Virus record (IMG/VR): IMGVR_UViG_3300017917_001616
Location: 1-64,000 of that record
DNA: 64,000 nucleotides
Direction: 5' to 3' (one strand)
From: a virus
Made by a program: the position numbers and the translations under genes. The notes below the pieces were generated by a model. It saw only the letters and a program-made list of their open reading frames with translations. It searched no databases and had not been told where the DNA came from. Numbering within the stretch: position 1 is the first letter of the stretch; every line of letters begins with the position of its first letter. Shown in pieces: positions 17,600 through 34,165 of this stretch.

Positions 17600-17852
17600 T
17601 ACTCTGTAAAGAGTAACCAAGTTTAGTCTGCGTCTTGTAGTTTATAACTGAGATTCACTACTTAAGGCGTAACAATGGACCGATAAGAACATTCGAAGTA
17701 AGAAGTCCTAACACTGCTGGTAAAACCGTTAAATGCTTTCTCAGGCTGTGCAGTTGCCGGACGCAGACTAAATAATTTAAGATGATAAATAAAAGTGTAA
17801 GATAATTTTATCTCAGATGATAAATAAACTTATATAAGGAATACAAAGTTCA

Positions 17853-17942
17853 ATGATTACATGCGGAACCACAGCACAGAATACATGGTCACTAGGGGGC
17901 AATCCTAGTGTCGATTCCGTGCGGGCGGGCCGAGGTAGTTAA
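17853..17942 (+). CDS. Putative attenuator leader peptide 1 (MITCGTTAQNTWSLGGNPSVDSVRAGRGS, 29 aa)
   Basis: AAGGA SD at 17836; terminator 25 nt after the stop; codons match the downstream tRNAs. Confidence 0.7.
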   Translation: MITCGTTAQNTWSLGGNPSVDSVRAGRGS

Positions 17943-17967
17943 GAACAAACCAAAAAGTTCGAACACC

Positions 17968-17999
17968 AAGGCCCCAAGCGAAAGCAGAGGGGCTTTTTT
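17968..17999 (+). terminator. Attenuator terminator 1
   Basis: aaggcccc-aa-gc-gaaa-gc-aga-ggggcttt plus T run; 5' arm can instead pair with leader 17896-17914. Confidence 0.8.
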
Positions 18000-18037
18000 A
18001 ATGGCTCAAAAAAAGATAAAAAAAGACAAAATAACAG

Positions 18038-18196
18038 TTGACAGGCAAGAACTCATACACTATATGTAACTAGTAAGGAACGCAGACGCAGCAACGCAGA
18101 GCTTCCAAACAAAAAAGAAAAAAGTTGTTGACAAGGCAAAAACAAGACGCTAAGTTAACAAGGTAAGCAAGAAGTTGTTTACACGCTCTTTGACAA
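18038..18196 (+). promoter_or_regulatory. Tandem sigma70 promoters with A-tract UP elements and a boxA-like element (18184-18196)
   Basis: TTGACA-17-TATATG (18038), TTGACA-17-TAAGTT (18128), CGCTCTTTGACAA. Confidence 0.7.
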
Positions 18197-18297
18197 TTTA
18201 GACGTATTACGGTAAGCTATAGTAGCTTATCACATTCCTTAGCGAAAGCGATGATAGGGATTGTAAGTAGACAATGTATGCACCAACATACATTAAC

Positions 18298-18431
18298 TAA
18301 CTCTACTTACACGTATGTTAGAAATGGGGGTAGCACGGTTCGACTCCGTGCGTGGTTGGGTTGACCTATGCAAAAAGCCGGCGGGCGCTCGCTGTTTCGA
18401 AGACAGACTAACATACTTGTAAGTAGAGTTA
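18298..18431 (+). ncRNA. Stem-enclosed RNA cassette containing a T-arm-like hairpin
   Basis: 24-nt terminal inverted repeat with 1 mismatch; internal gcacgg-ttcgact-ccgtgc. Confidence 0.6.
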
Positions 18432-18541
18432 ATAACTAGCGCAGGGGGATGACCCCGTAAGACGCAAGAGACTCGGCACTGCTAGGCTTATAGCAGCTAA
18501 GTCGCCCTTGTTGCCTGGGGTAGAGCCCATAACTGTTATGT

Positions 18542-18617
18542 TCCGTCTTAGCTCAGTTGGTAGAGCAGGTGACTGTTAATCACCGGGTCGCTGGTTCGAG
18601 CCCAGCAGACGGAGCCA
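18542..18617 (+). tRNA. tRNA-Asn(GTT)
   Basis: Canonical cloverleaf, CCA. Confidence 0.95.
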
Positions 18618-18625
18618 AAAATTAT

Positions 18626-18704
18626 CTGGGTGTAGCTCAGCTTGTGTTAGAGTGCTCGCCTTGGAAGCGAGAGGTCGAAGGTTCAAATCCTTTCACCCAG
18701 ACCA
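18626..18704 (+). tRNA. tRNA-Pro(TGG)
   Basis: Loop CTTGGAA, CCA. Confidence 0.92.
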
Positions 18705-18792
18705 GATACATCACGGTGCTGCATAAGCGAGGCTTAATCATAAATGCAGTTAAATCACTAACGGGCAGCGGTTAGCAGAGCCAAAAACATAC

Positions 18793-18880
18793 GGAGCGGG
18801 GGCAGGATGGTAATGCAGCAGATTGCTAATCTGTAGAGGGGGCAACTCCTCACTGGGTTCGACTCCCAGTCGCTCCGCCA
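18793..18880 (+). tRNA. tRNA-Ser(GCT)
   Basis: Loop TTGCTAA, long V arm, G73, CCA. Confidence 0.92.
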
Positions 18881-18952
18881 ATGGCACACTAGCATCAGGC
18901 TAGTCCAGACCGTAAGGTTAACGGTGACAAGCAGGGAGAGTCCTGCACACAC

Positions 18953-19062
18953 ATTCTACTTTAAACTATGCACAAGGCGTAGGCCACGCCGATGTTATGG
19001 CAACAGGTTGGCATTTGCTGACTAGGTGGTTCGATTCCACAGTGTATAGTTTAAAGTAGAAT
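18953..19062 (+). ncRNA. Stem-enclosed tRNA-like cassette
   Basis: 21-bp terminal stem with one G-U; internal gtgg-ttcgatt-ccac. Confidence 0.6.
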
Positions 19063-19064
19063 AT

Positions 19065-19141
19065 TGCGGGGTAGAGAAGTGGTCATCTCGCTTGGCTCAT
19101 AACCAAGAGATCGCTGGTTCGAATCCAGCCCAACGCAACCA
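19065..19141 (+). tRNA. tRNA-Met(CAT), initiator-like
   Basis: TGCGGGG start, fMet-like D arm, loop CTCATAA; imperfect acceptor stem. Confidence 0.8.
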
Positions 19142-19244
19142 AATTTCCAGTCTTAGTTACTAGGATCTCTCAGTTAAAAGCTGTCCTAGTGTAAAGCAAT
19201 GTCCTAAATGGCTTGCTTCTAAGGTAGCTGGAAAGCCAACAGTT

Positions 19245-19335
19245 GGACACTTGGCAGAGATGGATTATTGCACCGGTCTTGAAAACCGACGACGCTGAAA
19301 GGCGTCCCAGGGTTCGAATCCCTGAGTGTCCGCCA
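19245..19335 (+). tRNA. tRNA-Ser(TGA)
   Basis: Loop CTTGAAA, long V arm, G73, CCA. Confidence 0.92.
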
Positions 19336-19341
19336 TAAATT

Positions 19342-19415
19342 GGCCCTATGGTATATGGGTATTACACTAGGCTGTCTACCTGGTGAACGGGGTTCGAGTC
19401 CCCGTAGGGTCGCCA
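19342..19415 (+). tRNA. tRNA-Asp(GTC)
   Basis: Loop CTGTCTA, G73, CCA. Confidence 0.9.
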
Positions 19416-19616
19416 AGATACTTGAGTGTTAGTAAGTGAAAGGTGCAACAGTTTAGCGGCTGTTGTAACAAGGAGATATGCAATCCTCCGAGTAACTGTA
19501 ATAACGGACCCCAAGGACGCAAGTCCATAACTGCACGGCCGAAAATTTGCAGATAATGCTGTTGATGTTGTGGCAACAGGCTCAAGTAATAAAATAAAAA
19601 AAAGATAAAAAAAGTG

Positions 19617-19689
19617 TTGACAATGACAACAACACATACTATATTAAGAACATAAGCAGCAAACGTGTTGTTTATGCGCTCTTTGAAAA
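19617..19689 (+). promoter_or_regulatory. Sigma70 promoter, hairpin and boxA-like element
   Basis: TTGACA-17-TATATT, hairpin 19652-19675, CGCTCTTTGAAAA at 19677. Confidence 0.7.
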
Positions 19690-19699
19690 TTTGGTAAAC

Positions 19700-19884
19700 A
19701 CTGTGTTTAAAACTAACACGATACTAGATACTGTGTATAATGCACCGTTGGTTAGTGACCAGGTATTAGTAGGCTGAACAGCGTTGGGACGCAACTGTCG
19801 CAAAGACAGGAGGACTGGTTCGATTCCAGCAGTAGCAATTTACTCTCGAGGTGGGTTGCTTATTGTGTTAGTTTTAAACACAGT
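19700..19884 (+). ncRNA. Stem-enclosed RNA cassette with T-arm
   Basis: 24-bp terminal stem with one G-U; internal ctgg-ttcgatt-ccag. Confidence 0.6.
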
Positions 19885-19889
19885 ATAAC

Positions 19890-20746
19890 ATGGGCGGTAT
19901 AGCGTCCGACTTAAGGGTAAGTGCAGTAATGCACCCAAAGCAAGGTTTCCTATAAACTTGCGCTGTAGCAATACAGTCCATCTATGCAAGCCTGAACTAG
20001 AGTTGACTCGGTTATCCGAAAGCAACTCCCGTCCGTAGAAAGGCGGTAGGCAGTAAGTTAGGAATGGTGTCCGAAAGGATAGTCGCAGAGCCAGTCGGTG
20101 AGCGATAAGAGGGTTGGCGCCCAAACACCGTTCAGCCAAACTAACGAATGCTGAAAGTTAACAGGTAGCTACAGAGTCTGAGCCCGCAAGCAAAGGCATG
20201 GTAGCATCTTGAGAGTGGAAGGGTTAGGCCCCGGATACTTGAAAAGACGTTGAGTAGTCCGCAAGACGAAAGACAGTTGGTGTGTTGTATTCTGTATCTA
20301 ACAAGATATGGAGCAACTGGGGCAGCACATCGAAGTAGGTTCGCAATATTGCATAACGGTAATGCAATCGTATTATCAAACGACAGACTGTGGGTTCGAT
20401 TCCCACTGTTGCACACAAAAGCGAAAGACTGTCCCGGTATACTACGAAAGGTGGTTAATGCCACACTCGAAAGAGAATGTGGTCTACAGATGCTCGCAAG
20501 GCGGACGTAGTTGTTCGGAAAGATAGCGTAACTTCTTAGCGGAAGTGAACTGCTCGCAAGGCAGGCGAAGGATAGAAGGACGAGTAGTAGTATGCGACGA
20601 GAGAAACGCCACTCTCCAAAAAAGGCACCACTGGAAGATACAGGATGACCGTAAAAGGCTCCTGTGGATAACGAGAGAACGTGGCTCGCAAGGCTAACGG
20701 TAATGCTCAAAGGCTTCCATCCTATGCTGTAATCTCAAGCTAGGCA
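19890..20746 (+). ncRNA. Large ornate ncRNA, GOLLD-like, with a nested tRNA-like element (20342-20413)
   Basis: About 860 nt, GC-richer, no credible ORF, many GNRA-capped hairpins (gcaa, gaaa), located among tRNAs; boundaries approximate. Confidence 0.6.
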
Positions 20747-20851
20747 AAACATTACGTTTTGATGATACACATATATACTAACAGAGGCTTAGTCCGGAGA
20801 GCGTTATGCCAAGTTTATGTGTATCTTCTAAGCGTAAAATAAATACTTTAC

Positions 20852-20927
20852 GGGCTCTTAGCTCAGTTGGGAGAGCGGTAGCTTTGCAAGCTTCAGGTCA
20901 GCGGTTCGATCCCGCTAGGGTCCACCA
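20852..20927 (+). tRNA. tRNA-Ala(TGC)
   Basis: G3-U70, loop TTTGCAA, CCA. Confidence 0.93.
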
Positions 20928-20934
20928 AAATAAT

Positions 20935-21009
20935 GCGGGTGTAGCTCAGGGGTAGAGCGGCTGCTTGCCAAGCACCAGGTCACGGGTTCGAATCCCGTTA
21001 CCCGCTCCA
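20935..21009 (+). tRNA. tRNA-Gly(GCC)
   Basis: Loop TTGCCAA, U73, CCA. Confidence 0.93.
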
Positions 21010-21063
21010 AGTTAGGTTTTCGGTTAAGCCATTTAAAACCGTAAATGTATGTGAGAGGACAAT

Positions 21064-21318
21064 ATGAAAACTTTAGAAGAAAAAGAACAGTTTTACACTA
21101 AATGTGGAGAACTATTGGGAATAGAACACGTTTACACTACACCGGTTCCTAGACGTAACAGATGGAATACAAGACGATTAGGTAACGGTCGGTATCCCGG
21201 GTTTGGGTTGATACACTGTTATGGTAGTAGTGTGCGAGTTATGAGTAAACACGGAACACGTATGTTTAGCTCATACGAAGCGGTATATGAATATTTGTTA
21301 AAAGTTTTGCCCTTATAG
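21064..21318 (+). CDS. Hypothetical protein; stop codon lies inside tRNA-Thr
   Basis: GAGGA SD, 84 aa. Confidence 0.65.
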   Translation: MKTLEEKEQFYTKCGELLGIEHVYTTPVPRRNRWNTRRLGNGRYPGFGLIHCYGSSVRVMSKHGTRMFSSYEAVYEYLLKVLPL

Positions 21319-21384
21319 CTCAGCTGGTAGAGCATCTGATTTGTAATCAGAGGGTCGGGAGTTCAAGTCTCTCTGGGGGCACCA
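21309..21384 (+). tRNA. tRNA-Thr(TGT)
   Basis: Loop TTTGTAA, CCA. Confidence 0.93.
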
Positions 21385-21390
21385 AAATTT

Positions 21391-21466
21391 GGCTCGGTAG
21401 CAAAAGCGTCGAATGCGTGATCTTGCAAAGATCGAGGTGGTGGTTAAAGTCCATCCTGAGCCTCCA
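21391..21466 (+). tRNA. tRNA-Cys(GCA), atypical D and T loops
   Basis: Loop TTGCAAA, U73, CCA; T-loop TTAAAGT. Confidence 0.75.
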
Positions 21467-21476
21467 AAAACTAAAT

Positions 21477-21560
21477 GGTCGGTGGCCCGGATGGTAAGGG
21501 GATGGACTGCAACTCCATAGCACTGCAAAGTAATGTGTTCGATTCACATACCGACCTCCA
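21477..21560 (+). tRNA. tRNA-Cys(GCA) with long variable arm
   Basis: Loop CTGCAAC, extra arm act-gcaa-agt, U73, CCA. Confidence 0.82.
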
Positions 21561-21579
21561 AGTTTTTATAAATATATGT

Positions 21580-21969
21580 ATGAAGATATTTGAGATCACA
21601 GCAAAACTTGTAAACAAGTATTATCCAGAGCCGGATGAGACTGAAGTTGGGTCTGATGTAAAGAATGTAAGAAATGAAGTAAATCGAGTTGTTACATTGC
21701 CAATGAATCAAATTAAGTCTAGATTCGAAGGCGACGATAAAGCAGATCCTGCGTGGACTACAGCTAGAGCAAATATCGAAAACATTAAAAAACAAATTAA
21801 AAAAGATGTCAAACAGCTACCTCCAATAGTTGTGAGAAGGCTTCCAAGAGAAAATACGTATCAAGTAATAGATGGTCACCATCGTTACTTTGCATTTCGT
21901 GAAATGAATATTAAACTTATACCAGCTATAATACTAAATGCTGGACAAGTTACTGGTGACAAATATTAA
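21580..21969 (+). CDS. ParB/Srx N-terminal (ParBc-like) domain protein
   Basis: PPIVVR...YQVIDGHHR motif; TAAATA upstream; MKIFEI start. Confidence 0.8.
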   Translation: MKIFEITAKLVNKYYPEPDETEVGSDVKNVRNEVNRVVTLPMNQIKSRFEGDDKADPAWTTARANIENIKKQIKKDVKQLPPIVVRRLPRENTYQVIDGHHRYFAFREMNIKLIPAIILNAGQVTGDKY

Positions 21970-21978
21970 AAATACAAT

Positions 21979-22055
21979 GCGGATGTAGGCCAATTGGTAG
22001 AGTCGCTGCGCTTAGAACGCAGATGTTGGGGGTTCGAGTCCCTCCATCCGCACCA
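21979..22055 (+). tRNA. tRNA-Leu(TAG), short variable loop
   Basis: Loop CTTAGAA, A73, CCA. Confidence 0.88.
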
Positions 22056-22063
22056 AAGGTTGA

Positions 22064-22138
22064 TGGGAAGTAGTTCAGTGGTAGAATAACTGACTTTGAA
22101 TCAGCAGGTCGGAGGTTCGAGCCCTCCCTTCCCAACCA
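22064..22138 (+). tRNA. tRNA-Gln(TTG)
   Basis: U1-A72, loop CTTTGAA, CCA. Confidence 0.92.
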
Positions 22139-22146
22139 AAAAATAT

Positions 22147-22223
22147 CCGAGTGTAGCTCAGTTTGGTAGAGCGCCTGGTTTGGGACCAGGATGTCGTGGG
22201 TTCAAATCCTGCTACTCGGACCA
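22147..22223 (+). tRNA. tRNA-Pro(TGG)
   Basis: Loop TTTGGGA, CCA. Confidence 0.92.
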
Positions 22224-22519
22224 ATAAATTGTAGTGTTGAGCAACGACAACAAGACTGCTACAGCGGTCTACTACATTCGGTAAGCGGGACCGTTCGTTG
22301 TAACAGCCAAACAAGACGACCGAAGTAAACTAGTTTAGACCTAGCGAAAAGGGCCAGCTGCCTGTGACGTGCATTCCGGGGTTAGAGAAGCTGGGGATAT
22401 GGTTTCGGTGTTTACCTGAACAAAATATACTGTGGAATGTCGTTTTCTGTCTAAGAATAATCTGTTACAACGAAATAGTAACTCCGGATGATAGTAACCG
22501 GTTTATATAGAGATTCAAT

Positions 22520-22594
22520 GCGGGTGTAACTCAGAGGTAGAGTGTCAGCCTTCCAAGCTGTTCGTCGAGGGTTCGATTCCCTTCGCCCGCTCCA
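22520..22594 (+). tRNA. tRNA-Gly(TCC)
   Basis: Loop CTTCCAA, U73, CCA. Confidence 0.93.
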
Positions 22595-22598
22595 AATT

Positions 22599-22673
22599 GC
22601 CGGTGTAGCTCAGTGGTAGAGCGACGGTCTCCAAAACCGTGCGTAGTGGGTTCGATTCCTACCTCCGGCGCCA
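22599..22673 (+). tRNA. tRNA-Trp(CCA)
   Basis: Loop CTCCAAA, G73, CCA. Confidence 0.93.
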
Positions 22674-22924
22674 AACTTGGGAGTTAGCCGCCCAAAACCA
22701 GTGTCAACGACTTCTCATACAACTTGACACTCTAATAAACTTTTGTATCTGAGACGAGGCCATCTGCGTAGTGATGGCAGGCGTTGGTTGTGTTGGTCTT
22801 GAAAGAAACGCAACGGGTATTGATGCATGCCTAAGGAAAGGGTTGGCCCCCAGCATCGACTATTTTATGACCTAGCGTCACTGTATTGGTCTAGTCACCC
22901 TTATACACCTAGGTCTTCTTATTT

Positions 22925-22999
22925 GCGCCCTTGGACAAGATGGATTGTCAGAGGATTCTAACCCTTAGTAGACGGGATCGTTACCCGTAGGGCGCACCA
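22925..22999 (+). tRNA. Atypical tRNA; anticodon CTA (amber suppressor) in canonical register, TCT (Arg) in shifted register
   Basis: Perfect acceptor, D and T stems; weak anticodon stem around TTCTAAC; CCA. Confidence 0.7.
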
Positions 23000-23128
23000 A
23001 ATATTTCTGGGTTATCCGAGACAATCTCCGCCACGGGCGGCTTGGCTGTTTATAAGTCTAGCAAAGCTAGTTAGATACTATAGGACATAGACGGTAACTT
23101 GGGGCGCTATAAATAAAAGGAGCAATAC

Positions 23129-23305
23129 ATGAGAATGACCAAAGAAGAAATTGAAACCGCAGTTCGAGTTTGGCCAGCTAATGTAAAGGCTCCGATAACT
23201 CGAGACGAACAAATACAACTAATTATTACAGCACGTGAACGTCACGCTGCTAACAGAGAAAAAATTCGACAACTTTTAAAGGAGAATAATAATGTCGTAG
23301 ATTGA
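23129..23305 (+). CDS. Small hypothetical protein (58 aa)
   Basis: TATAAATA and AAGGAG SD upstream. Confidence 0.55.
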   Translation: MRMTKEEIETAVRVWPANVKAPITRDEQIQLIITARERHAANREKIRQLLKENNNVVD

Positions 23306-23885
23306 ATATGCTTGTAAGGAACTAGTTTTCCATTTCAACAAAAAACACTTAGAAGATGATACTATCCCGATGTGGGTTATCAAGTTTCGTGGTGAAACAT
23401 ATTATGTTAACCATGTAGATTGCAGCGTTCCGTGGTCAACCAAAGAAACGCCAGATAACAATCACACCAAAGGCAGTATTAAAGTTAAAAACTGCTTAGT
23501 AGTAATTGATGATTCAAACACAGCAATTATTACACCATTGACTGAAGCAGATAAGAAAAAACTCGAAAGTAAGAAAAAATTTACACGTATTATTACTAGC
23601 TATGGTGCAAAGTTGAAGGCAGCAATCAACGACTTAGGACTTGAAACTGGTTATATTAAAAAAGCAGGCGGTGGCTGTAGCACGTTATGGTTCATCACCG
23701 AGTTGTATAATTACGATGAGTTTTTTCAACTTAAGTTTGCTATGACAGGCACAGACTTGCGAGTGTTAAAAGAAAACGAAGACTACTTCAAAGCGTATGG
23801 TTCATCAACAGATGACCAAGAATATATCGACGACGAAGAAGATTTGTATGATGACGAGGATTACGAATCATTATACGAAACTTAG
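23292..23885 (+). CDS. Hypothetical protein; probable true start 23292 with in-frame TAG at codon 3 (ORF track starts at 23370)
   Basis: AAGGAG SD before ATG TCG TAG ATT GAA...; frame continues open into 23370-23885. Confidence 0.6.
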
Positions 23886-23967
23886 ACTACAAACGTAGCA
23901 GTAACTAGGTTACTGCCCGTATAAAACCCCCGCTGTGATCCCGAGATAAGAACACAGAGGACCAGCA

Positions 23968-23993
23968 CCCCACGCTTTCGAGCGTGGGTTTTT
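23968..23993 (+). terminator. Rho-independent terminator
   Basis: cccacgct-ttcg-agcgtggg followed by TTTTT. Confidence 0.75.
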
Positions 23994-24068
23994 GCGGGAT
24001 TAGCTCAGTGGTAGAGCCGCTCGTTTACACCGAGAAGGTCGGGAGTTCGAACCTCTCATCCCGCACCA
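23994..24068 (+). tRNA. tRNA-Val(TAC)
   Basis: Loop TTTACAC, CCA. Confidence 0.92.
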
Positions 24069-24090
24069 ATTATTTTTATGGACGTTATAT

Positions 24091-24717
24091 ATGGTTAAAA
24101 TGACTTGTTACTCGGATGTTCCTGGATGGGGAGATTTTCCGATAGTATACCGTGATTTAGTTGCGTCACTGCCTGCTAACGCTAGTATACTTGAATTAGG
24201 TGTTGGGTTTGGACGTGGAACATGGACAATGCTCGACGCAATGACGGATACCATGTCACTTTATATAATTGATAGTTTTAATGCAGTAGACACAGTAGAT
24301 TTGTGGGAAAATTATTTCGAAACAGGTAGTCCGGTAACACTAAGTCGGGAAAATATATTAGAGTATGGAAATATGACTAAAATATATAACCACTACGAAA
24401 TCTTTTTACATAATATATGTCAACACACACGTTACTCTCAAATACAAGCAATACATGCTATATCAAGCGACGAGTATATTGCTTCGAATTTTAAGAATGA
24501 TTTTGATCTTGTATTCCTAGACGGCGAGCATTCATATGAAGCTGTAAAGCAAGAACTTGAATACTTTAAAAATTCTGGCATAATTTCTGGACATGACTAC
24601 AATATTGAAACTTGGCCGGGTGTAATACAAGCGGTAACCGAATTTCTTGATAGTAACCCCGATCGGTATTTAAAAGTATACGAAGAAAATGAAGTATTTG
24701 TGATTTGCCGTCGTTAA
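24091..24717 (+). CDS. Class I SAM-dependent methyltransferase (Methyltransf_24-like)
   Basis: ILELGVGFGR, FLDGEHSYE, ISGHDY...WPGV motifs. Confidence 0.85.
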   Translation: MVKMTCYSDVPGWGDFPIVYRDLVASLPANASILELGVGFGRGTWTMLDAMTDTMSLYIIDSFNAVDTVDLWENYFETGSPVTLSRENILEYGNMTKIYNHYEIFLHNICQHTRYSQIQAIHAISSDEYIASNFKNDFDLVFLDGEHSYEAVKQELEYFKNSGIISGHDYNIETWPGVIQAVTEFLDSNPDRYLKVYEENEVFVICRR

Positions 24718-24755
24718 ACTGAATAATAAATAGTTTTAATTACGGAGATTACAAT

Positions 24756-25619
24756 ATGGTCTATCATTTAGAAAATTCTATCTGGAATAAAAAAAATCAT
24801 CCAGAAGGACTTTCGCTGCCTATGATCGAAGATTTACCTAGGGTCAACTTATTATTAAAGCCTGCAATAGAAAGAAAGGCAAAAGACAAGATTGTTATTG
24901 ACCTTGGGTGCGGCAGCGGATTATTGGGACTATATGCTTTTGACTACGGTGCAAAATTTGTTTATTTTGTTGAACAAGACCCTTTCATGATTGATACATT
25001 ACGTAACAGTTTGCCTAAAATACTAGATCCTAACAAATTTAAAATTATTCATAAGTATGCACAAGACTTAACTTATGATGATTTTGATTGTGGCGAACCA
25101 GAGTTATGTGTTAGTGAGTTACAAGGGCCGCAACTGTATGACGAAGGTTGCTATCAATGCACAATTCCTATACGAAGCATGTATCAAAACTTAGTATTCA
25201 TACCAGAAGTGTATCGACTCGATATCATTGAATCAGATGTAGACTATAGCAAATGGCCGTGGCCTCAAAGCGAAACACGTTTGTTAGAGCATTACAAATA
25301 TATGTATTCTAAAATAGGTTGGACAAATGGGTTTATCGGATTAGACCGTCCTATCGAATTAGTAAATCCGAAAAAAATAGGTGAGCTTGTATACGACACA
25401 AGATCTGGTATTTTTAAAAACACATTTTCTACTGTTATTACTGCGCCAGAAGGCAAAATGATTAACATGTTTGGTTTTTGCCAATCTGACGAATTAGAAA
25501 ATGTTACAACTAAATTTGGTTGGTATGTTTATCCCAGACAGGAACAGATGTTATTGACAGTTCATAATCCCAATACAGCTATTGATTCTAGGATTATGTT
25601 TTCTTTAGCATTACAATGA
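24756..25619 (+). CDS. SAM-dependent methyltransferase, PRMT-like
   Basis: M..D..R, VIDLGCGSGLL, GAK.VY.VE, SE..G..L.DEG double-E-like loop. Confidence 0.7.
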   Translation: MVYHLENSIWNKKNHPEGLSLPMIEDLPRVNLLLKPAIERKAKDKIVIDLGCGSGLLGLYAFDYGAKFVYFVEQDPFMIDTLRNSLPKILDPNKFKIIHKYAQDLTYDDFDCGEPELCVSELQGPQLYDEGCYQCTIPIRSMYQNLVFIPEVYRLDIIESDVDYSKWPWPQSETRLLEHYKYMYSKIGWTNGFIGLDRPIELVNPKKIGELVYDTRSGIFKNTFSTVITAPEGKMINMFGFCQSDELENVTTKFGWYVYPRQEQMLLTVHNPNTAIDSRIMFSLALQ

Positions 25620-25625
25620 AATTAT

Positions 25626-27338: not shown

Positions 27339-27367
27339 TTGACGAAGATAAATAAAAGCACTATATT
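27339..27367 (+). promoter_or_regulatory. Sigma70 promoter with a late TAAATA box embedded in its spacer
   Basis: TTGACG-aagataaataaaagcac-TATATT. Confidence 0.75.
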
Positions 27368-27395
27368 ACTAACATAAGCAAAAGGAAATCAAGAG

Positions 27396-27485
27396 ATGAC
27401 TCACAATACTAAACACATGATTAGCATTAAGCGTTTTGAACGCCACGAGTATCTCTTTGGATTCTCGGAGGGTTATAGCGGATAA
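27396..27485 (+). CDS. Putative attenuator leader peptide 2 (MTHNTKHMISIKRFERHEYLFGFSEGYSG, 29 aa)
   Basis: AAGGA SD, own promoter, terminator 26 nt after the stop, two segments complementary to the terminator. Confidence 0.78.
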   Translation: MTHNTKHMISIKRFERHEYLFGFSEGYSG

Positions 27486-27511
27486 GTGTATATACACATA
27501 AACGCAATGAC

Positions 27512-27543
27512 ACCCTCCAGTAGAGATACTAGGAGGGTTTTTT
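27512..27543 (+). terminator. Attenuator terminator 2
   Basis: accctcc-agta-gaga-tact-a-ggagggt plus T run. Confidence 0.88.
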
Positions 27544-27679
27544 ATTAGGCTAAAGTGGAAATGCGGAACGAGACTGCGAGTAACCACTATAAACAAACTC
27601 AAATGGGCGTGTTAGAAGATGAAACGACCGGTGGTAACGGCGGAGTAAAAATCTAGCAGCAAGCTAATAATTTTGTTTT

Positions 27680-27750
27680 GGCGACACGGCAAGTGCCGAC
27701 TCGGCTCTCATAAGGCTGATGATTTGGAGCGTTACCAAATGTCGCTACCA
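27680..27750 (+). tRNA. tRNA-Met(CAT)-like with reduced D arm
   Basis: Acceptor ggcgaca/tgtcgct, loop CTCATAA, atypical T-loop, CCA. Confidence 0.65.
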
Positions 27751-27878: not shown

Positions 27879-27882
27879 TTAT

Positions 27883-27957
27883 TGCCTCTTAGCTCAGTGG
27901 TAGAGCAATCCCCTGATAAGGGATAGGTCACTAGTTCGAATCTAGTAGGGGCAACCA
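27883..27957 (+). tRNA. tRNA-Ile(GAT)
   Basis: Loop CTGATAA, CCA. Confidence 0.92.
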
Positions 27958-27964
27958 ATTATAT

Positions 27965-28041
27965 CTCGCATAGGACTACTCGGTGATGGTCGCTGGCCTT
28001 TCAAGTCGGAGAAACGGGTTCGAAACCCGTATGCGGGACCA
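27965..28041 (+). tRNA. tRNA-Glu(TTC)
   Basis: Loop CTTTCAA, T arm, CCA. Confidence 0.85.
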
Positions 28042-28046
28042 ATAAC

Positions 28047-28122
28047 GCTTCTAACTGTCTAATGGAAAGGCAGGCGCCCGATAAGCGTCTAGAAGGAAGT
28101 TCGATTCTTCCTAGAAGCACCA
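28047..28122 (+). tRNA. tRNA-Ile(GAT), C33 variant
   Basis: Loop CCGATAA, CCA. Confidence 0.78.
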
Positions 28123-28129
28123 AACACAT

Positions 28130-28215
28130 GTGCAGGTGGGTGAGTGGCTTAAACCAGCAGACTGTAACTCTGCCGCTGAGAAGCAACGTTGGTTCGAATC
28201 CAACCCTGCACACCA
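28130..28215 (+). tRNA. tRNA-Tyr(GTA)
   Basis: Loop CTGTAAC, V arm, CCA. Confidence 0.9.
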
Positions 28216-28257
28216 AATATAGATCAAGCCTAGTTGATCTCGAAAGTCGCTAGGCCC

Positions 28258-28322
28258 GCCCTTGCAAGAGGTTATAGAAAGGATCGAGACTTTCTATGTG
28301 GGATCGTTCCCCACCAAGGGTA
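28258..28322 (+). ncRNA. D-armless tRNA-like element (possible CGA anticodon), no CCA
   Basis: gcccttg/caagggt acceptor, 8-bp anticodon stem, gtggg-atcgttc-cccac T arm. Confidence 0.5.
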
Positions 28323-28329
28323 TCGTTAC

Positions 28330-28421
28330 GGGGGATGCAAGTAAGGCTAGGTGGTCCTGGCGGCTGGCTGTAAACCAGTCCCTGCAAAGGCAAGGCGTTC
28401 GAATCGTCCCATTCCCCACCA
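28330..28421 (+). tRNA. tRNA-Tyr(GTA), atypical (8-bp acceptor, 6-bp D stem)
   Basis: Loop CTGTAAA, V arm, CCA. Confidence 0.75.
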
Positions 28422-28426
28422 AATAT

Positions 28427-28502
28427 CCCTAGGTAGTTCAGTTGGTAGAACACATGCCTGAAGAGCATGGTGTCGGCGGTTCGATTCCGTCCCTAGGGGC
28501 CA
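28427..28502 (+). tRNA. tRNA-Phe(GAA)
   Basis: Loop CTGAAGA, CCA. Confidence 0.9.
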
Positions 28503-28505
28503 TAT

Positions 28506-28581
28506 CTGTCTGTAGCTCAACTGGAAGAGCAAGGGATTTCTACTCCCTAGGTTGCGAGTTCGACTCTTGCCAGGCAGGCCA
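28506..28581 (+). tRNA. tRNA-Arg(TCT)
   Basis: Loop TTTCTAC, A20, CCA. Confidence 0.9.
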
Positions 28582-28583
28582 AT

Positions 28584-28658
28584 CCTGATGTAGTGATAAT
28601 GGTAGCACACTGAGCTGTGGACTCAGTAGAGTTGGATCGTAACCAACCGTCAGGACCA
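28584..28658 (+). tRNA. tRNA-His(GTG), A73, no G-1
   Basis: Loop CTGTGGA; preceded by T; ends GG-A-CCA. Confidence 0.88.
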
Positions 28659-28748
28659 AAAAAATTAAAAAAAGATGAAAATAGTTGTTGACTCCAAGAT
28701 GTCTTGAATGTAGTGTGTATATGTAAGTTGAGAACAACGGAGACAACA

Positions 28749-29105
28749 ATGAAAGTTATCGTCCAGCATATCGACCAAGATCGTGATACTGGTGCTGTTT
28801 TGGGCTTTACTAATGTTGCAGAAGTTAACGTGTGGCACACCGAAGACATCGACGAAGCACTCGAATACGCTTATCGTTGGACCAACAACGTGTCAGGTTC
28901 GTGGAGCATCAAGTTGCGAGATATGCGACTGCGTGATGGCACTATGTTTGAGAATGGTGACTACAACGATGATGTAACTGTGCTTGTTCCCTTGCATAAG
29001 GGCGGAGTTGGTTTGCGTAGCACTTCGATGTTTGACCGTATGATTCTTAACGGCAAGACATACAAAGTATCGATGGTTGGGTTTACTGAAATGGAGACTG
29101 CATAA
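28749..29105 (+). CDS. Hypothetical early protein
   Basis: GGAG SD, promoter at 28688. Confidence 0.7.
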   Translation: MKVIVQHIDQDRDTGAVLGFTNVAEVNVWHTEDIDEALEYAYRWTNNVSGSWSIKLRDMRLRDGTMFENGDYNDDVTVLVPLHKGGVGLRSTSMFDRMILNGKTYKVSMVGFTEMETA

Positions 29106-29510
29106 TGTCGGACGTTACTAAGTTTTTTGCAATCGCACTTAATAGTGCGCTAGCAATTGTTGTAATCGGGATGGTGGTTAACTACGATCCCATGCGGGCA
29201 GCAATCGATCATGCTGTGCTAGTTGCAATTATGAGCGAGTAATGAAGTTAGACCCCGAAGAAAGAATACTGTTAACAAAGGAGGAAGCTGAGCGTATTGA
29301 AGACATATGTAAAAATCCTCCCGAGCCGACCGACTACGTAAGACGATATATTAACGCATATAGGAAGAAAGATGAAACGAAAACGCCAAAAGGTTCCTAA
29401 GGAAAGGAACGTGTTTGTAGCTGCCGCATTGTTTCGCAAGGCAGGCGCACACACTAAAACAAACAAAGCGAAACGAAAACGTGAAAAACAAGACTTCACA
29501 GAAAACATTA

Positions 29511-29597
29511 GGACCGGTGCCCGAGAGGCCGATGGGGACAGACTTTTAATCTGTAGCAGCAATGCCAACGAAGGTTCGAATCCTTCCCGGTTCACCA
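29511..29597 (+). tRNA. tRNA-Lys(TTT) on a Tyr-like long-V-arm body
   Basis: Loop CTTTTAA in acaga/tctgt stem, long V region, CCA. Confidence 0.85.
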
Positions 29598-29908
29598 TTA
29601 CTTTGATGATACGTAAAATATGGGTTCGATTCCCGGCACTATACCTCGCAAGGGTGAAGGGCTCCTTTAAGGTAGGATTGAACGTATCTTCTAAGTAATG
29701 ATTATTTTGACGATAACAGAATAGCAGATCCTGGGTAATTAAGTTTGCTTTAGAGTGGGATCAGGGATATGTTGCGAGCCCTGCTGTTATCTTCTAAGTA
29801 ATGACATTGTTTTGATGATATATTGATACCGAAGGGCACGACGGTTTGGTTAGTAACCCTGATGCCGGGTGAACGGTTCGAATCCAACAATATATCTTCT
29901 AAGTAATG
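29596..29908 (+). repeat. Three tandem ~104-nt stem-enclosed RNA units with shared termini TTTGA(T/C)GATA...TATCTTCTAAGTAATG
   Basis: TATCTTCTAAGTAATG ends at 29700, 29803 and 29908; a related unit lies at 20752-20837. Confidence 0.8.
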
Positions 29909-29982
29909 CGCCGGTAGCTCAGAGGCAGAGCAGGGGGCTCTTAATCCCAAGGTCGAGGTTTCGAAATCCTCCCGGCACACCA
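29908..29982 (+). tRNA. tRNA-Lys(CTT)
   Basis: Loop CTCTTAA, CCA. Confidence 0.88.
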
Positions 29983-29990
29983 AAGAATAT

Positions 29991-30068
29991 TGTCCTAGAG
30001 TCGTCCAGGTGACGGCACCTGGCTGTTAACCAGGATGGAGAGAGGTTCGAGTCCTCTTAGGACAGCCA
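29991..30068 (+). tRNA. tRNA-Asn(GTT), atypical D arm
   Basis: Loop CTGTTAA, G73, CCA. Confidence 0.85.
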
Positions 30069-30270
30069 AAATAGAATAGTGAACTCGAGAGGATAAAAAC
30101 TAAAACACTGCAAGCTGATCACTTGCTGATTTAAAAAAACAATACTAAATCAGTTTTAGTTTGACTTTCGATGTAGCTTAGTAGGGCGGCCACTAAAACT
30201 CCGGAGAGATGGCTCATTACCATCCAGTGCCCTACGACCAATTACTGTGTTATAAATAAAATTAAAAGGT

Positions 30271-30816
30271 ATGTTTATGACACTAAGACACGTTTTTCTA
30301 GACTACGATTTTTCATTATTTCTAGGTGCAAACTATCACATACACGAAGGAAGTTGCATTAAGCATCAAGTGTATGAACTCACTGATATTCACAATGAAT
30401 ACGGCGGCTTTCCTGACTCTTACAGTTTTGAAAATACACGTATTCATCAGCTCTGGTGGAATGAAGAACAAGTTGATTTTGTCGAGTTAGGAAATCAACT
30501 TGGCATGGATGTAGTGACTATAAGCACTATACTGCAGCCGCCGGGAAATGTTATTCCTATACACCGAGATACGTTTTTTCAAATAAAAAACAAATATCCA
30601 GATGACAGTAGAGTTAAGGTCAGGGCTAACATATACTTAGAAGAATGGGCAGTCGGTCACCTTATACAATACAAAGAGAACGGTGAGTGGAAAAATTCTA
30701 CACATTGGAAGGCTGGCGAAGGCTGGTTATGGGATAGCAGTATTTTGCATCTTAGTGCCAATGCAGGAATGAAAAACAAATATACTATGCAAATAAGCGG
30801 CTTCTTACGAGAATGA
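30271..30816 (+). CDS. Cupin / 2OG-Fe(II) oxygenase-like protein
   Basis: PGNVIPIHRD ... HLSANAG (HxD...H triad). Confidence 0.6.
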   Translation: MFMTLRHVFLDYDFSLFLGANYHIHEGSCIKHQVYELTDIHNEYGGFPDSYSFENTRIHQLWWNEEQVDFVELGNQLGMDVVTISTILQPPGNVIPIHRDTFFQIKNKYPDDSRVKVRANIYLEEWAVGHLIQYKENGEWKNSTHWKAGEGWLWDSSILHLSANAGMKNKYTMQISGFLRE

Positions 30817-32012
30817 TTTCTAAGGATGTTTTTGTTGTGTTAAGCAACACTGTTGAAAGTTATCATTCTTTTTTATCTGTTAAAAATGAACGTATAAACA
30901 GCATAGAAAATACTTTAGGTTTTTATCCAGGGTTTGACTATAACTTACTTGTAAATTTTAAATTTGCAAAGTTTTTACCCGTCGATTCGTTAAAGTTAGT
31001 ATTAAATTTAACTATGTTACCAAATTACGTTAATATATACCTAGATAGTGAAGTAATCGATTATATAAATCAAACAGACAACGTATATCTTTGGTTATAT
31101 TCGCCGCACGAATCTACATTACGATTTGATTTATTGTTCGACGAATTACAAAAACATAATATAAAATTTGAAAAAGTCATTATATCTAACAGTAGTGATC
31201 GCTATCATCATAAAATAGTAGATGGTGTAAAGTTTACTTGTTTATATAATTGGTGGGAACAATATTATAAGTTTCATTTACAGACCTTTACAGACGTTTC
31301 CTTTGTGACTCCGGAACAAAGATTAGCAACTATTAGCACTGCAAATAAAAAGTTCTTAAACTTAAACCGGAATTTAAAAAACTTCAGAGTTTGGTTCTAT
31401 TACAAAATGATAGAACACGGCGTCGTAGATCAAGGACATGTAAGTTACCATTTGCCTACAATAGCAAATAGTTTTGAAGATTATAATTTGTTTTTAGAAA
31501 AAGAACTATCTAAACTAAACAACAATACATTAAAAAATAAAATTTTACTAACACCTGAAATTTATAAAGTCAAAGAACTTGATGCGTTAAACCATAATAT
31601 GATAATCAATTACCAAAATAGTATTGCAGATTATTATAATGACAGTTTAGTATCTTTTACTTGCGAAAGTTTATTAGAAGAAAACTTTATAACGGAAAAA
31701 ACATTTAAGTCTATAACACATTCGCATCCGTTTATAATGATAGGCAACGATAAGATAACACAACGATTAAGATTAGCGGGCTATAAAACCTTTGAATCAA
31801 TATTTGGGTTAGATCACGTATCTACCTTAGATGCTGCAGATGAATTGTTATATGCAGTAAAGAATACAACGTTAGACAATTTAAAGAAAATTGTTAGAGA
31901 AGAATGTTTTGAAGATGTGACGTATAATTACAATCATTTTTTTAATCGAAAAGTTCATTTCAACGAAATACTCGACGATATTAAAAAAGTGGTTGACTTC
32001 AAGACATCATGA
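30813..32012 (+). CDS. Hypothetical glycosyltransferase-like protein
   Basis: FLNLNR, ES...FITEKTFK...HPF..G motif reminiscent of GT10-like enzymes. Confidence 0.5.
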   Translation: MISKDVFVVLSNTVESYHSFLSVKNERINSIENTLGFYPGFDYNLLVNFKFAKFLPVDSLKLVLNLTMLPNYVNIYLDSEVIDYINQTDNVYLWLYSPHESTLRFDLLFDELQKHNIKFEKVIISNSSDRYHHKIVDGVKFTCLYNWWEQYYKFHLQTFTDVSFVTPEQRLATISTANKKFLNLNRNLKNFRVWFYYKMIEHGVVDQGHVSYHLPTIANSFEDYNLFLEKELSKLNNNTLKNKILLTPEIYKVKELDALNHNMIINYQNSIADYYNDSLVSFTCESLLEENFITEKTFKSITHSHPFIMIGNDKITQRLRLAGYKTFESIFGLDHVSTLDAADELLYAVKNTTLDNLKKIVREECFEDVTYNYNHFFNRKVHFNEILDDIKKVVDFKTS

Positions 32013-32034
32013 AAGTATATATAAATTAACAAAT

Positions 32035-32109
32035 GCCTCTGTAGCTCAGTGGAAGAGCTCTGGTCTTCGAAACCAAGGGTCGGGAGTTCGAATCTCTCTA
32101 GGGGCACCA
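32035..32109 (+). tRNA. tRNA-Arg(TCG)
   Basis: Loop CTTCGAA, CCA. Confidence 0.9.
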
Positions 32110-32114
32110 AATAT

Positions 32115-32190
32115 ACTTCCGTAGCTCAATTGGAAGAGTGCCGCCCTACGAAGGCGATTGTTGGGGGTTCGAGTCCCTCCGGGAGTGCCA
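32115..32190 (+). tRNA. tRNA-Arg(ACG)
   Basis: Loop CTACGAA, CCA. Confidence 0.9.
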
Positions 32191-32197
32191 ATTTTAT

Positions 32198-32273
32198 AGG
32201 CCGTAACTATGGTGTAGTCGGACAATATGACATGTTGTCGTCGGAGATGGGTTCGATCCCCGCAGGCCTACCA
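32198..32273 (+). tRNA. Atypical tRNA-Val(GAC)-like
   Basis: gacaat-ATGACAT-gttgtc arm, T-loop TTCGATC, CCA; irregular acceptor and D arm. Confidence 0.55.
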
Positions 32274-32277
32274 ATTT

Positions 32278-32351
32278 GCTGCTATAGTATAAAGGTATTA
32301 TGCGTCTTTGGTAAGGACGAGACGGAGGATCGTTACCTCCTAGCAGCACCA
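32278..32351 (+). tRNA. tRNA-Thr(GGT)
   Basis: Loop TTGGTAA, CCA; T-loop ATCGTTA. Confidence 0.87.
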
Positions 32352-32371
32352 GAAAAAAGATAAAAAAGATG

Positions 32372-32433
32372 TTGACATTTATAACGTCTTACTTTAAATG
32401 TAACATGTAGACGATGAAGATGCTCTTTGACAA
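32372..32433 (+). promoter_or_regulatory. Promoter and boxA-like element ahead of an ncRNA block
   Basis: A-tract, TTGACA, TGCTCTTTGACAA at 32421. Confidence 0.65.
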
Positions 32434-33101
32434 ATTAAACAAATGACTTGGTTGTGTGCAGAACACGTAAACCCAAGTTGCGTAAATAACAGAAGCTGGT
32501 GACTATAGCATATTGTTAATGCGCTACATTGAAGGAAAGATGGCGTGGCGACCATCCAGAGCAAAGGCTCTGCAAGCACAAATCAGCTAACATGTGCGTC
32601 AGTTGTAGAGAAACTTGTCGATTCAAGTCAATGGTCGCTTCTGTTTTCACATGCACATGCGGTAGGCGCCGCTTCGAAAAGGTATGAAAGACCTAACGCC
32701 GAAAGGATAGCGAAAGACACTCTGCAGGGTGGCTCGAGTAACTAACATGTGCAGCTGAAAGCAGAAATACCTGGGCGATGACTCGAGTAAAGCAATCTTT
32801 ACCAGAGGTTGTTTGAAAGACGGCGTCAGGCTCGATACTCTAATTGTAGGGGTGCATAACGTCTACTACTACGGGCATCGGGCGGCAAGATAAGGTGCTG
32901 GTAACACTGGACTTGCTGGTGGGTTCAACTTCCCATGCCTTGGTCAAAATAATAGATTGGCCTGAGTTTGATGTTTCTCGAGATAAATCATTCCAGGACG
33001 ACGTCGGCCTGTGTTCCCACCGTGCTTGAGCCGACGATAAAAAAGCAGAGTGAAAATGCTTGAGAGACTGTTCAGTTAACGGTGGGCCGTAATTTAGTTA
33101 C

Positions 33102-33207
33102 GCTGGGTCTAGCATGGTGCTGTCGAAGAGGTTGATCTCTCCTAGACGAAGTAGAGAAATGAAACGCTCATGTGCTTCATCCCGTTCGAATCGGACGCCC
33201 GGCGCCA
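33102..33207 (+). ncRNA. CCA-ended tRNA-like RNA with a Y-RNA-like GUCGAAG/CUAGAC helix
   Basis: gctgggt/gcccggc-G-CCA acceptor, ccg-ttcgaat-cgg T arm. Confidence 0.55.
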
Positions 33208-33409
33208 ATTAACACCCATGTTCGTCTTGCTTAGTTTAGCATGTATGACTTGGGCACCAAATATTCACTATACAGGGGGTCGACATTCTGTGTAGAGAGA
33301 ACACTGCCTAGCCCGTGGGACCTCGGGGTAGCATTAAGGCGAAATACCAGTTCGTGCAGGGGTAAAAGTCCTAACGGGGGGTCCCAGGAAATTTTTAAGG
33401 TAATAGAAG

Positions 33410-33931
33410 ATGAAAGAAGCACGTAAATACCTAGTATTTTTGGATGTTGATGGCGTGTTTACTTCGTCACGTGTTCATTATGGTCACAATGCTAGCTACG
33501 ATATGTGGCACAGGTTTGATCCAGTTGCAGTAGACTTTATGAATAAGATTCATGATCGGTATCCAGTTGAGTTTGTTCTAATGTCAACTTGGAAAAACTA
33601 TATCGATGTAAAAAGTCATATGATCCAGCATTGGGTTCGTGCTGCATTTGGTAATAGCGGTTTCAGGGGGCAACTTGCAACTCCGTGGAAAACAGATCCT
33701 GACGAACTTTGGATCAACAGAAAAAACTTTGACCGAGGCGACGAAGTAAAAGAGTATTTAGATGTATACGGACAGGATGTCAACGATTTCATCTTATTTG
33801 ACGACAATGCTTATAACTTCGATAAAGCACTAGGAGTTAAGCGGCTAGTAAGAACAGATCATGAAAATGGACTGTTATACAAGCATATGCTACATGCCCA
33901 GAGTATCATGGGACAATGGCATGAACGATAG
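33410..33931 (+). CDS. HAD-family phosphatase (RNA-repair-associated type)
   Basis: FLDVDGV, MSTW, RG.E, ILFDD motifs. Confidence 0.8.
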   Translation: MKEARKYLVFLDVDGVFTSSRVHYGHNASYDMWHRFDPVAVDFMNKIHDRYPVEFVLMSTWKNYIDVKSHMIQHWVRAAFGNSGFRGQLATPWKTDPDELWINRKNFDRGDEVKEYLDVYGQDVNDFILFDDNAYNFDKALGVKRLVRTDHENGLLYKHMLHAQSIMGQWHER

Positions 33932-33995
33932 GTAGCTGCAACTACCTTGGCTAGGAGACTATCTTTAACGAACTTTGCAGAGTTGTTGATAGGTA

Positions 33996-34067
33996 GACTG
34001 TTTCGTCTAACGGAGAGGACGCTGCCTAGAGGTGGCAGAGATATAGGTTCGAATCCTGTAGCAGTTT
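33996..34067 (+). pseudogene. tRNA pseudogene / tRNA-like element (Glu/Asp-type D arm, no U33, no CCA)
   Basis: Cloverleaf with loop TAGAGGT. Confidence 0.55.
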
Positions 34068-34086
34068 TGCTCTTAGCCAGAAATTA

Positions 34087-34165
34087 GTCCTTGTAACGGA
34101 AATTGGTAAACCTCTTCCGTCGAGAGCGGCAGGATTTGTGGGTTCGAGTCCCACCAAGGACACCA
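34087..34165 (+). tRNA. tRNA-Leu(GAG), short variable region
   Basis: Loop TCGAGAG, A73, CCA. Confidence 0.75.

Follow-up and report, generated by a model that had tools for sequence, protein, structure and literature searches.

IMG/VR virus record IMGVR_UViG_3300017917_001616 is a contig of 74,982 bases, the first 64 kb of which (64,000 nucleotides, one strand, positions counted from its first letter) were analyzed here and are referred to as the window. The contig has a completeness of about 19% (CheckV) and is thus a fragment of an uncultured jumbo phage, whose TerL shares 58% identity with its counterpart in Pseudomonas phage PA5oct. The window contains 41 tRNA genes, all on the plus strand (ARAGORN). 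Two groups of them, block 1 and block 2, are each preceded by a short reading frame with a Shine-Dalgarno (SD) sequence before it and an intrinsic terminator behind it. It is these two leader units, which may be ribosome-mediated transcription attenuators, that are dealt with in the following; ahead of a further group of tRNA genes, block 0 (14685–17189), no leader was found. The units and the blocks behind them consist of the following features.

17836–17840, plus strand: SD sequence AAGGA of leader 1, 12 nt 5′ of the ATG
17853–17942, plus strand: leader open reading frame (ORF) 1, 29 codons, ATG start
17968–17999, plus strand: intrinsic terminator 1 (hairpin 17968–17996, U run 17994–17999)
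18542–25699, plus strand: tRNA block 1 with 19 typed tRNAs (N, P, S, M, D, A, G, T, C, L(tag), Q, W, R(tct), V) plus a tRNA-like call within a GOLLD RNA
27382–27386, plus strand: SD sequence AAGGA of leader 2, 9 nt 5′ of the ATG
27396–27485, plus strand: leader ORF 2, 29 codons, ATG start
27512–27543, plus strand: intrinsic terminator 2 (hairpin 27512–27538, then a U run)
27883–34165, plus strand: tRNA block 2 with 15 tRNAs (I, E, Y, F, R, H, K, N, T(ggt), L(gag))

The two ORFs had been described in a first-pass annotation of this DNA as exactly 29 codons long, each with an AAGGA SD and with a terminator about 25 nt after the stop codon. All of this is found as described, the measured gap from stop codon to hairpin being 26 nt in both units and the terminator hairpins having −13 to −16 kcal/mol. 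A scan of the plus strand from 12 to 36 kb for hairpins followed by a U run gave three strong terminators, two of which are those of the leader units, and in these 24 kb the combination of an SD-led short frame with a terminator is present only in the two units. The units were therefore singled out by the terminator scan and not picked by their codon content. The third strong terminator (23969–23993, plus strand, −14 kcal/mol) ends 5 nt 5′ of tRNA-Val(tac), and no short SD-led frame was found before it. Any SD-like site is present in merely 19 of the 48 long genes, and an AAGGA-type SD (mostly AAAGGA) is kept in nearly all homologous units (see below). Neither unit has a match in Rfam at E ≤ 1 or in Pfam or NCBIfam at E ≤ 10, and no T-box (Rfam) was found in 13500–35000 at E ≤ 1. 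Leader 1 contains a T-arm-like stretch; the idea that it is a tRNA remnant was dropped for lack of any tRNA or other Rfam match.

The leaders sample many codons rather than repeat one, as had been claimed: no amino acid is present more than four times, and runs of one amino acid are at most two residues long. Classical tandem regulatory codons are thus absent, which is the main departure from the classical family of leader peptides. For the amino acids exclusive to leader 1 (A, C, D, P, Q, V, W), tRNAs are confined to block 1 in 7/7 cases; for those exclusive to leader 2 (E, F, H, K, Y), they are confined to block 2 in 5/5. The exclusive amino-acid sets and the blocks therefore agree in 12 cases and disagree in 0, which bears out the earlier claim without exception. 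The isoacceptor pairs that had been pointed out (CTA/TAG, ACA/TGT, CTC/GAG, ACT/GGT and AAA+AAG/TTT+CTT) likewise hold against the tRNAs called by ARAGORN. At the level of single codons, wobble included, the tRNAs of block 1 read 23/28 codons of leader 1 (22/28 under strict wobble) and those of block 2 only 6/28, while leader 2 is read at 21/28 codons by block 2 and at 10/28 by block 1. For codons 2–21 the value is 18/20 for each leader with its own block; most of the mismatches are in the last eight codons, that is, near the 3′ ends of the leaders, where they had been located before.

The permutation test of leader codons against anticodons that had been proposed is significant. With the amino-acid/block labels permuted, 12/12 agreement has P ~5e-4, and the combined own-versus-other codon score has P = 2.5e-4 when compared with pairs of real gene segments of the window phage. 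A score as high as that of the leaders was obtained with 0/200,000 random-peptide pairs, 0/200,000 pairs of real protein segments, 1/200,000 small-ORF pairs and 0/50,000 shuffles of the leaders' own bases. The ordinary genes inside the blocks show no such bias (0.43–0.70 and 0.36–0.56 for every gene), which excludes a regional composition effect; these genes and the own-base shuffles also rule out that the match stems from the codon bias or GC content of the region. The observation of two leader units matched to the tRNA blocks behind them is thus confirmed.

Via the flanking proteins only three contigs with homologues were reached at first (L002, L107, and G006). A 22-nt stretch of a conserved element 3′ of terminator 2 matches 18 IMG/VR contigs, one of which is G006, and a stretch upstream of leader 1 matches three contigs, two of them new; the tRNAs and the SD-ORF-terminator units in the tRNA islands of the relatives were mapped with one script. 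SD and ATG are preserved in the homologue of leader 1 in L002, as are the 26-nt gap and the reading frame, which has 27 codons. Leader 1 frame and spacer are there ~45% identical to those of the window and the flanks ~90%, and the conserved anchors are in the same reading frame despite length differences of 3–6 nt between anchors. Homologues of leader 1 are those of L002/G007, G012, G015, G021, G024, G025, and G029. Leader 2 is identical in all 90 nt in L107 and G006, where the neighboring 253-residue protein is 57% and 53% identical. The diverged homologues, present in about 20 contigs, form three leader families. The ORF is kept in these contigs, and so are the SD, the ATG and the complementarity of a leader strand to the terminator's 5′ arm; the frames mostly have 27–34 codons (19 in G017 and 39 in G013), and the gap from stop codon to terminator is 25–31 nt in all homologues but one. 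In relatives with 66–80% TerL identity, which have 3–6 tRNAs at the syntenic site, blastn revealed no leader homologue.

L1-type leaders (core W..G.SNPG.D, 27–29 codons) always precede a block of Asn, Ser, Val, Trp, Asp, Gly, Thr, Leu(tag), Gln, Pro, and Ala tRNAs. L2-type leaders (motifs KHMF, REC, EY, and SEGY; 29–32 codons except for the 19 of G017) always precede Cys, Met, Glu, Tyr/Phe, Lys, Ile, His, and Arg tRNAs. Contigs in which a single unit was found have a 34-codon leader with all 20 amino acids before a mixed block; by chance, all 20 would be present in 34 residues with P ~1.1e-3. The L2-type unit and its block come first in G021, G023, G024, and G025 and second in the window, G012, and G015, the leader type staying with the matching block type despite the swapped block order. 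The codon/anticodon correspondence is also found in the homologues: in six of six genomes with two units, the fit of each leader to the block behind it is far better than that to the other block (P < 5e-5 to 3e-3). The L1-type leaders of G024 and the window, for example, have only four aligned codons in common, yet the match with the own block holds. The leaders contain nearly all amino acids for which their blocks have tRNAs, the sets of amino acids found in the block only being empty or comprising 1–2 residues. L2-type leaders have Cys codons exactly where tRNA-Cys heads the block and lack them in the window, where tRNA-Cys is in block 1; and the leader of G017 is the only L2-type leader with Trp codons and the only one with tRNA-Trp behind it.

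The leader strand that pairs with the terminator (mostly GGAGGG with CCCTCC) ends 4–13 nt, usually 8, before the stop codon in 18/19 units and 8–9 nt before it in those of the window. From this geometry it is predicted that a ribosome terminating at the stop codon would cover the antiterminator strand. In G012, GGAGG is read in a frame shifted by one base (peptide SEG to TGG), with the RNA complementarity kept. In both families the three codon positions are equally diverse, which indicates that the peptides are not conserved as proteins; for this reason, and because family matches are lacking, a conserved small protein is rejected. That frame, length and amino-acid repertoire are kept and the peptide is not would be expected if translation matters and its product does not.

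The structures that could compete with the terminators are the following.

17927–17974, plus strand: candidate antiterminator 1; GGGCC (17927–17931) pairs with GGCCC (17970–17974), closing a spacer hairpin (17934–17967)
27448–27530, plus strand: antiterminator 2, nested; AGTATCTCT (27448–27456) pairs with AGAGATACT (27522–27530), and GGAGGGT (27467–27473) with ACCCTCC (27512–27518)

Complementarity between the 3′ end of the ORF and the terminator had been claimed for both leaders. For leader 2 this stands, with two exact-complement helices of 9+7 = 16 bp; for leader 1 it shrinks to merely 5 bp (GGGCC:GGCCC). When enforced, antiterminator 2 has −38.5 kcal/mol as compared with −42.3 for the terminator fold, and it is the minimum free energy (MFE) structure of a nascent RNA ending at 27520 or 27531, before the 3′ arm of the terminator exists. 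The duplex between leader 2 and its terminator (−23.3) lies ~5 standard deviations beyond dinucleotide shuffles (−10.9 ± 2.5), none of which reached it (P < 5e-4). Candidate antiterminator 1 is also the MFE structure while the 3′ arm of the terminator is withheld, and its architecture recurs in L002 and G012, the spacer hairpin of L002 differing in sequence. Under the same condition, the MFE structure of four units from all three families is the same helix of leader strand, spacer hairpin and 5′ arm, and in the leader/terminator duplex test 9/19 units have P ≤ 0.04. Both units of the window fold much better than shuffles (z −3.3 and −4.8). A local hairpin (27445–27466) holds part of the outer strand of antiterminator 2 and leaves GGAGGGT free. 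A strong anti-antiterminator (1:2) was not seen, and an untranslated leader may therefore read through. A pyrBI-type model, in which the ribosome blocks the terminator itself, was considered and rejected, since the stop codon, 26 nt before the hairpin, is too far away for such a mechanism to be likely.

Promoter-like sequences are found on either side of the terminators.

17784–17793 and 17819–17828, plus strand: two copies of the promoter-like motif GATAAATAAA ahead of leader 1
18038–18066 and 18128–18156, plus strand: sigma70-like promoters 3′ of terminator 1 (TTGACA-17-TATATG and TTGACA-17-TAAGTT), conserved in L002
27339–27367, plus strand: promoter of leader 2 (TTGACG-17-TATATT), with GATAAATAAA (27347–27356) in the spacer

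Motif GATAAATAAA is present in 4 copies in the window where 0.48 are expected, and both copies before leader 1 are kept in L002. Its core ATAAATAA occurs 8 times, always on the plus strand, and the copies that were placed against the ORF list lie ~20–100 nt before an ORF start. In L107, the promoter of leader 2 has a 5-nt insert in the spacer and has kept a ATAAATAAA motif. The sigma70-like promoters, including those inside the blocks, have a common extended upstream consensus (A-rich, then GT.GTTGAC; near 18030–18043, 18120–18133, 19610–19622, 28680–28693, and 31985–31998), and this early-type consensus has matches at many places in the relative G005.

The mechanism we propose is as follows. 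Transcription would start at a ATAAATAA-type phage promoter, cross the strongly initiated 29-codon frame and head to the intrinsic terminator. The G-rich strand 10–16 nt before the stop codon would pair with the 5′ arm of the terminator once this arm is made, giving an antiterminator that closes the spacer hairpin. A ribosome arriving at the stop codon in time would cover the G-rich strand, upon which the terminator would fold and the transcript would end. A ribosome slowed in about the first 20 codons would let the antiterminator persist, and RNA polymerase would enter the tRNA genes. The codons of each leader are almost exactly the set that the tRNAs of the following block decode, so that the supply of these tRNAs would feed back on their own block. 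We infer that the frames are translated, that the two RNA structures compete kinetically and that the response has this direction.

The probability that each unit is a ribosome-mediated transcription attenuator before a phage tRNA gene block is in our estimate about 0.6. Leader-peptide attenuators controlling tRNA blocks had been proposed in the first-pass annotation, and the proposal is now supported by structure, by statistics (the permutation test) and by comparative data (the conservation of the homologues and the block fit in six genomes). Large phage tRNA islands could then be self-regulating, with leaders that sample the codons of the tRNAs behind them and a ribosome that measures supply by codon class, so that the deficient set is raised. 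This would be a tRNA homeostat and also an answer to tRNA-cleaving host defenses; for this wider conclusion we consider the odds to be about even. That the quantity sensed is the loss of tRNAs caused by host defenses is speculative, host anticodon nucleases being what may have been a reasonable selective motive.

A number of findings weigh against the attenuator reading. Some codons are not matched by the own block, namely ATT, GTC, TCC, CGG, and CGA in leader 1 and ATG, AGC (twice), GGA (twice), TCG, and GGT in leader 2. The P values of the six genomes are not independent because the genomes are related. A covariation of leader codons with array content in the relatives, which had been suggested as a check, is seen between leader types and blocks, but within a family the block permutation is marginal (P 0.058 and 0.048), and in some L2-type leaders there are Tyr, Phe, His, Ala, Ser or Thr codons for which the following block has no matching tRNA. 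Among the more distant relatives whose tRNA islands are large, G005 (22 tRNAs by ARAGORN, 28 Rfam matches in the record) is without a clear unit, and Phosso and PA5oct show no unit. Antiterminator 1, with its 5 bp, is barely better than shuffles (P 0.03–0.18), and several homologues do not reach significance in the duplex test. The terminator fold is always favored at equilibrium, hence any switch must be kinetic, and no pause site was identified. Finally, the two conserved sigma70-like promoters directly 3′ of terminator 1 bypass this terminator, and there are further ones inside both blocks (19617, 28688, and 31993). These five TTGAC promoter-like sites had been named as a caveat before, and for leader 1 the caveat is real. 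Because promoters are found 3′ of the terminators, the switch can gate only transcripts from the upstream ATAAATAA-type promoters. Dependence on read-through would be complete only for the first sub-block behind unit 2 (27883–28658; Ile, Glu, Ile, Tyr, Phe, Arg, His), which has no promoter between it and terminator 2; the block of leader 1 has those at 18038 and 18128.

Among the other explanations, it is unlikely that the units are translated attenuators or insulators which sense general translation capacity, i.e., ribosome availability, host shut-off or transcription-translation coupling, and in which the partition of the codons is a by-product. The proposed geometry would indeed give read-through upon any delay of the ribosome, the fine covariation within families is only marginal, and the promoters 3′ of terminator 1 make a role specific for tRNAs less necessary. 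However, such a sensor would have no reason to split the amino acids in the way the tRNA blocks do, in six genomes and with either block order, nor to contain all 20 amino acids where only one unit is present.

It is similarly improbable that the units are stand-alone small genes or RNAs, coding for a 29-residue late peptide or giving a ~170-nt structured RNA that acts in trans, and that their position in a tRNA island is incidental. Each unit does have its own promoter, SD and terminator, and both fold well beyond shuffles. The 100% nucleotide identity of leader 2 where the neighbor protein is 53–57% identical is as for a functional RNA, and trans-acting small RNAs derived from attenuators are known (rnTrpL, PMC6614838). 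Yet the peptides are without protein-like purifying selection, leader 1 diverges faster than its flanks, and no Rfam, Pfam or NCBIfam family is matched; moreover, neither the codon/tRNA match nor the conserved pairing strand ~8 nt before the stop codon would be explained. That the frames are chance ORFs beside ordinary terminators of upstream transcription units, with the match a result of post-hoc selection among many phage windows, is very improbable: a random 27-codon frame is open with a probability of ~0.27, but the units were chosen by position and signals and not by the match, they are the only such units in 12–36 kb, the codon match (P 2.5e-4) is joined by an independently significant antiterminator 2 (P < 5e-4), and frame, length and geometry are kept in ~20 diverged contigs.

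As attenuators, the units would be closest to the leaders of the ilvGMEDA (Ile/Leu/Val) and thr (Thr/Ile) operons. These likewise have an SD-led short frame, an intrinsic terminator and an antiterminator sharing a strand with it; their stop codon is so placed that a terminating ribosome covers the antiterminator strand, and they sense more than one amino acid. However, they control biosynthetic enzymes, whereas the units described here precede phage tRNA genes, are without runs of regulatory codons (12–13 different amino acids, each present one to three times), show no clear 1:2 anti-antiterminator, and are not related in sequence (no Rfam or Pfam match). With trpL, hisL, pheL, and leuL the units have the logic of ribosome position and the class of RNA switch in common; but those leaders sense the charging of one tRNA via tandem codons, whereas here the codons of a whole block would be sampled and the output would be tRNA. 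T-box riboswitches also report tRNA status by attenuation, with an antiterminator competing with a terminator. They bind uncharged tRNA directly, without translation, and control synthetase and amino-acid genes, whereas here the ribosome would be the sensor. In pyrBI a leader ORF lies beside a terminator too, and the outcome is set by the closeness of ribosome and polymerase; there, the ribosome blocks the terminator, whereas here, with the stop codon 26 nt before the hairpin, it would remove the antiterminator. A terminated leader transcript that is stable, structured and of similar size is also seen in rnTrpL from Sinorhizobium (PMC6614838), and it is conceivable that the terminated transcripts of the units could act in trans like it; no target is suggested for them, and such a role would be a possible second function only.

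Full-text literature searches retrieved no paper describing the control of tRNA genes by a leader peptide, in phages or otherwise. Work on phage tRNA genes centers on codon compensation and on the escape from host anticodon nucleases (PMC10264068; PMC11464382; PMC11555353). Why phages carry tens of tRNA genes and how these are controlled is an open question. If the attenuator reading is true, a cis-regulatory logic would be described for phage tRNA arrays for the first time, and the units would be the first leader-peptide attenuators with tRNA as output instead of an amino-acid pathway, with many codons sampled together; as a compact natural part, they could also serve to sense tRNA supply. 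The conserved geometry (SD, ~29 codons, a pairing strand 8 nt before the stop codon and a hairpin 26 nt after it) can serve as a rule in the search for more such switches.

Cultured relatives offer only weak candidates for units of this kind. A megablast of 17–21 kb against deposited phages gave matches to tRNAs only, and a distant blastn with the leader 2 unit against deposited phages gave no match. In Atu_ph07, gp469 (NC_042013.1, 339118–339246; L161, reverse strand), annotated as a hypothetical protein of 42 residues, lies directly before the main tRNA cluster and has a GATAAATAA motif, an AAAGGA SD, a terminator and a 9-bp complement to a terminator arm (CCGGTTCCG/CGGAACCGG); 25/41 of its codons match the tRNA cluster that follows, which is not significant (P 0.16). 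Vibrio phage 2.275.O (MG592671.1, ~167571–167725; L163, 72–225) has a 31-codon frame with a TATAAATA motif and an SD 5′ of it and a terminator 3′ of it. This frame contains 6 Ser and 2 Phe codons, and the next tRNAs are Ser(tga), Phe, Ser(gct), and Ser(gga), which gives 8/30 matched codons where 3.1 are expected (P 0.017); the terminator and the tRNAs are separated by a protein gene.

The surroundings of the units contain further conserved non-coding sequences. Unit 1 is flanked by two stretches on the plus strand (17625–17772 and 18195–18430) that are 90–100% identical in L002 and L134. The first has a long-range closing stem of 9 bp (GTCTGCGTC/GACGCAGAC); in the second, nested stems (GTAAGTAGA/TCTACTTAC) surround a variable insert with a perfect T-arm-like hairpin at ~18320–18345. 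Just 3′ of terminator 2 there is an RNA element of ~60 nt (27553–27610, plus strand) which is almost invariant in 11 diverged phage contigs. It consists of the stems AGTGG/CCACT and GCGG/TGCG followed by a covarying hairpin, has no match to an Rfam family and has its own promoter in the single-unit relatives. Further 3′ lies a tRNA-like gene (27680–27750, plus strand) whose anticodon loop has CAU, whose T loop is atypical and whose CCA end is encoded; it was called neither by ARAGORN nor by Rfam; counterparts are present 3′ of the terminator in L107, where it is called tRNA-Met, and in the single-unit relatives.

Within block 1, a full-length GOLLD RNA (RF02032, 195 bits against a cut-off of 150) is found at 20277–20741 on the plus strand. 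The “tRNA-???” reported by ARAGORN at 20342–20414 is inside this RNA (Rfam tRNA 43.8 bits), and L134 has an odd tRNA call at the place matching it. A gene for a PP-loop protein (TilS-like, PF01171, E 3e-31) at 15645–16250 on the plus strand adjoins two tRNA(CAT) genes, and some of the “Met” tRNAs may therefore be lysidine-modified Ile tRNAs. In three relatives, tRNAs called by ARAGORN have a CUA anticodon (“Pyl”, possible amber suppressors), and one called tRNA has a four-base anticodon (ttac), the loci of these calls with odd anticodons being L114 5045–5118, the islands of G015 and Phosso, and L122 2475–2549. In L002, finally, positions 8869–9305 comprise a tRNA-like 5′ half, then a ATAAATAAA promoter motif and then a Cys- and His-rich ORF, within which the contig ends; the arrangement looks like a tRNA gene interrupted by an insert of the homing-endonuclease type.

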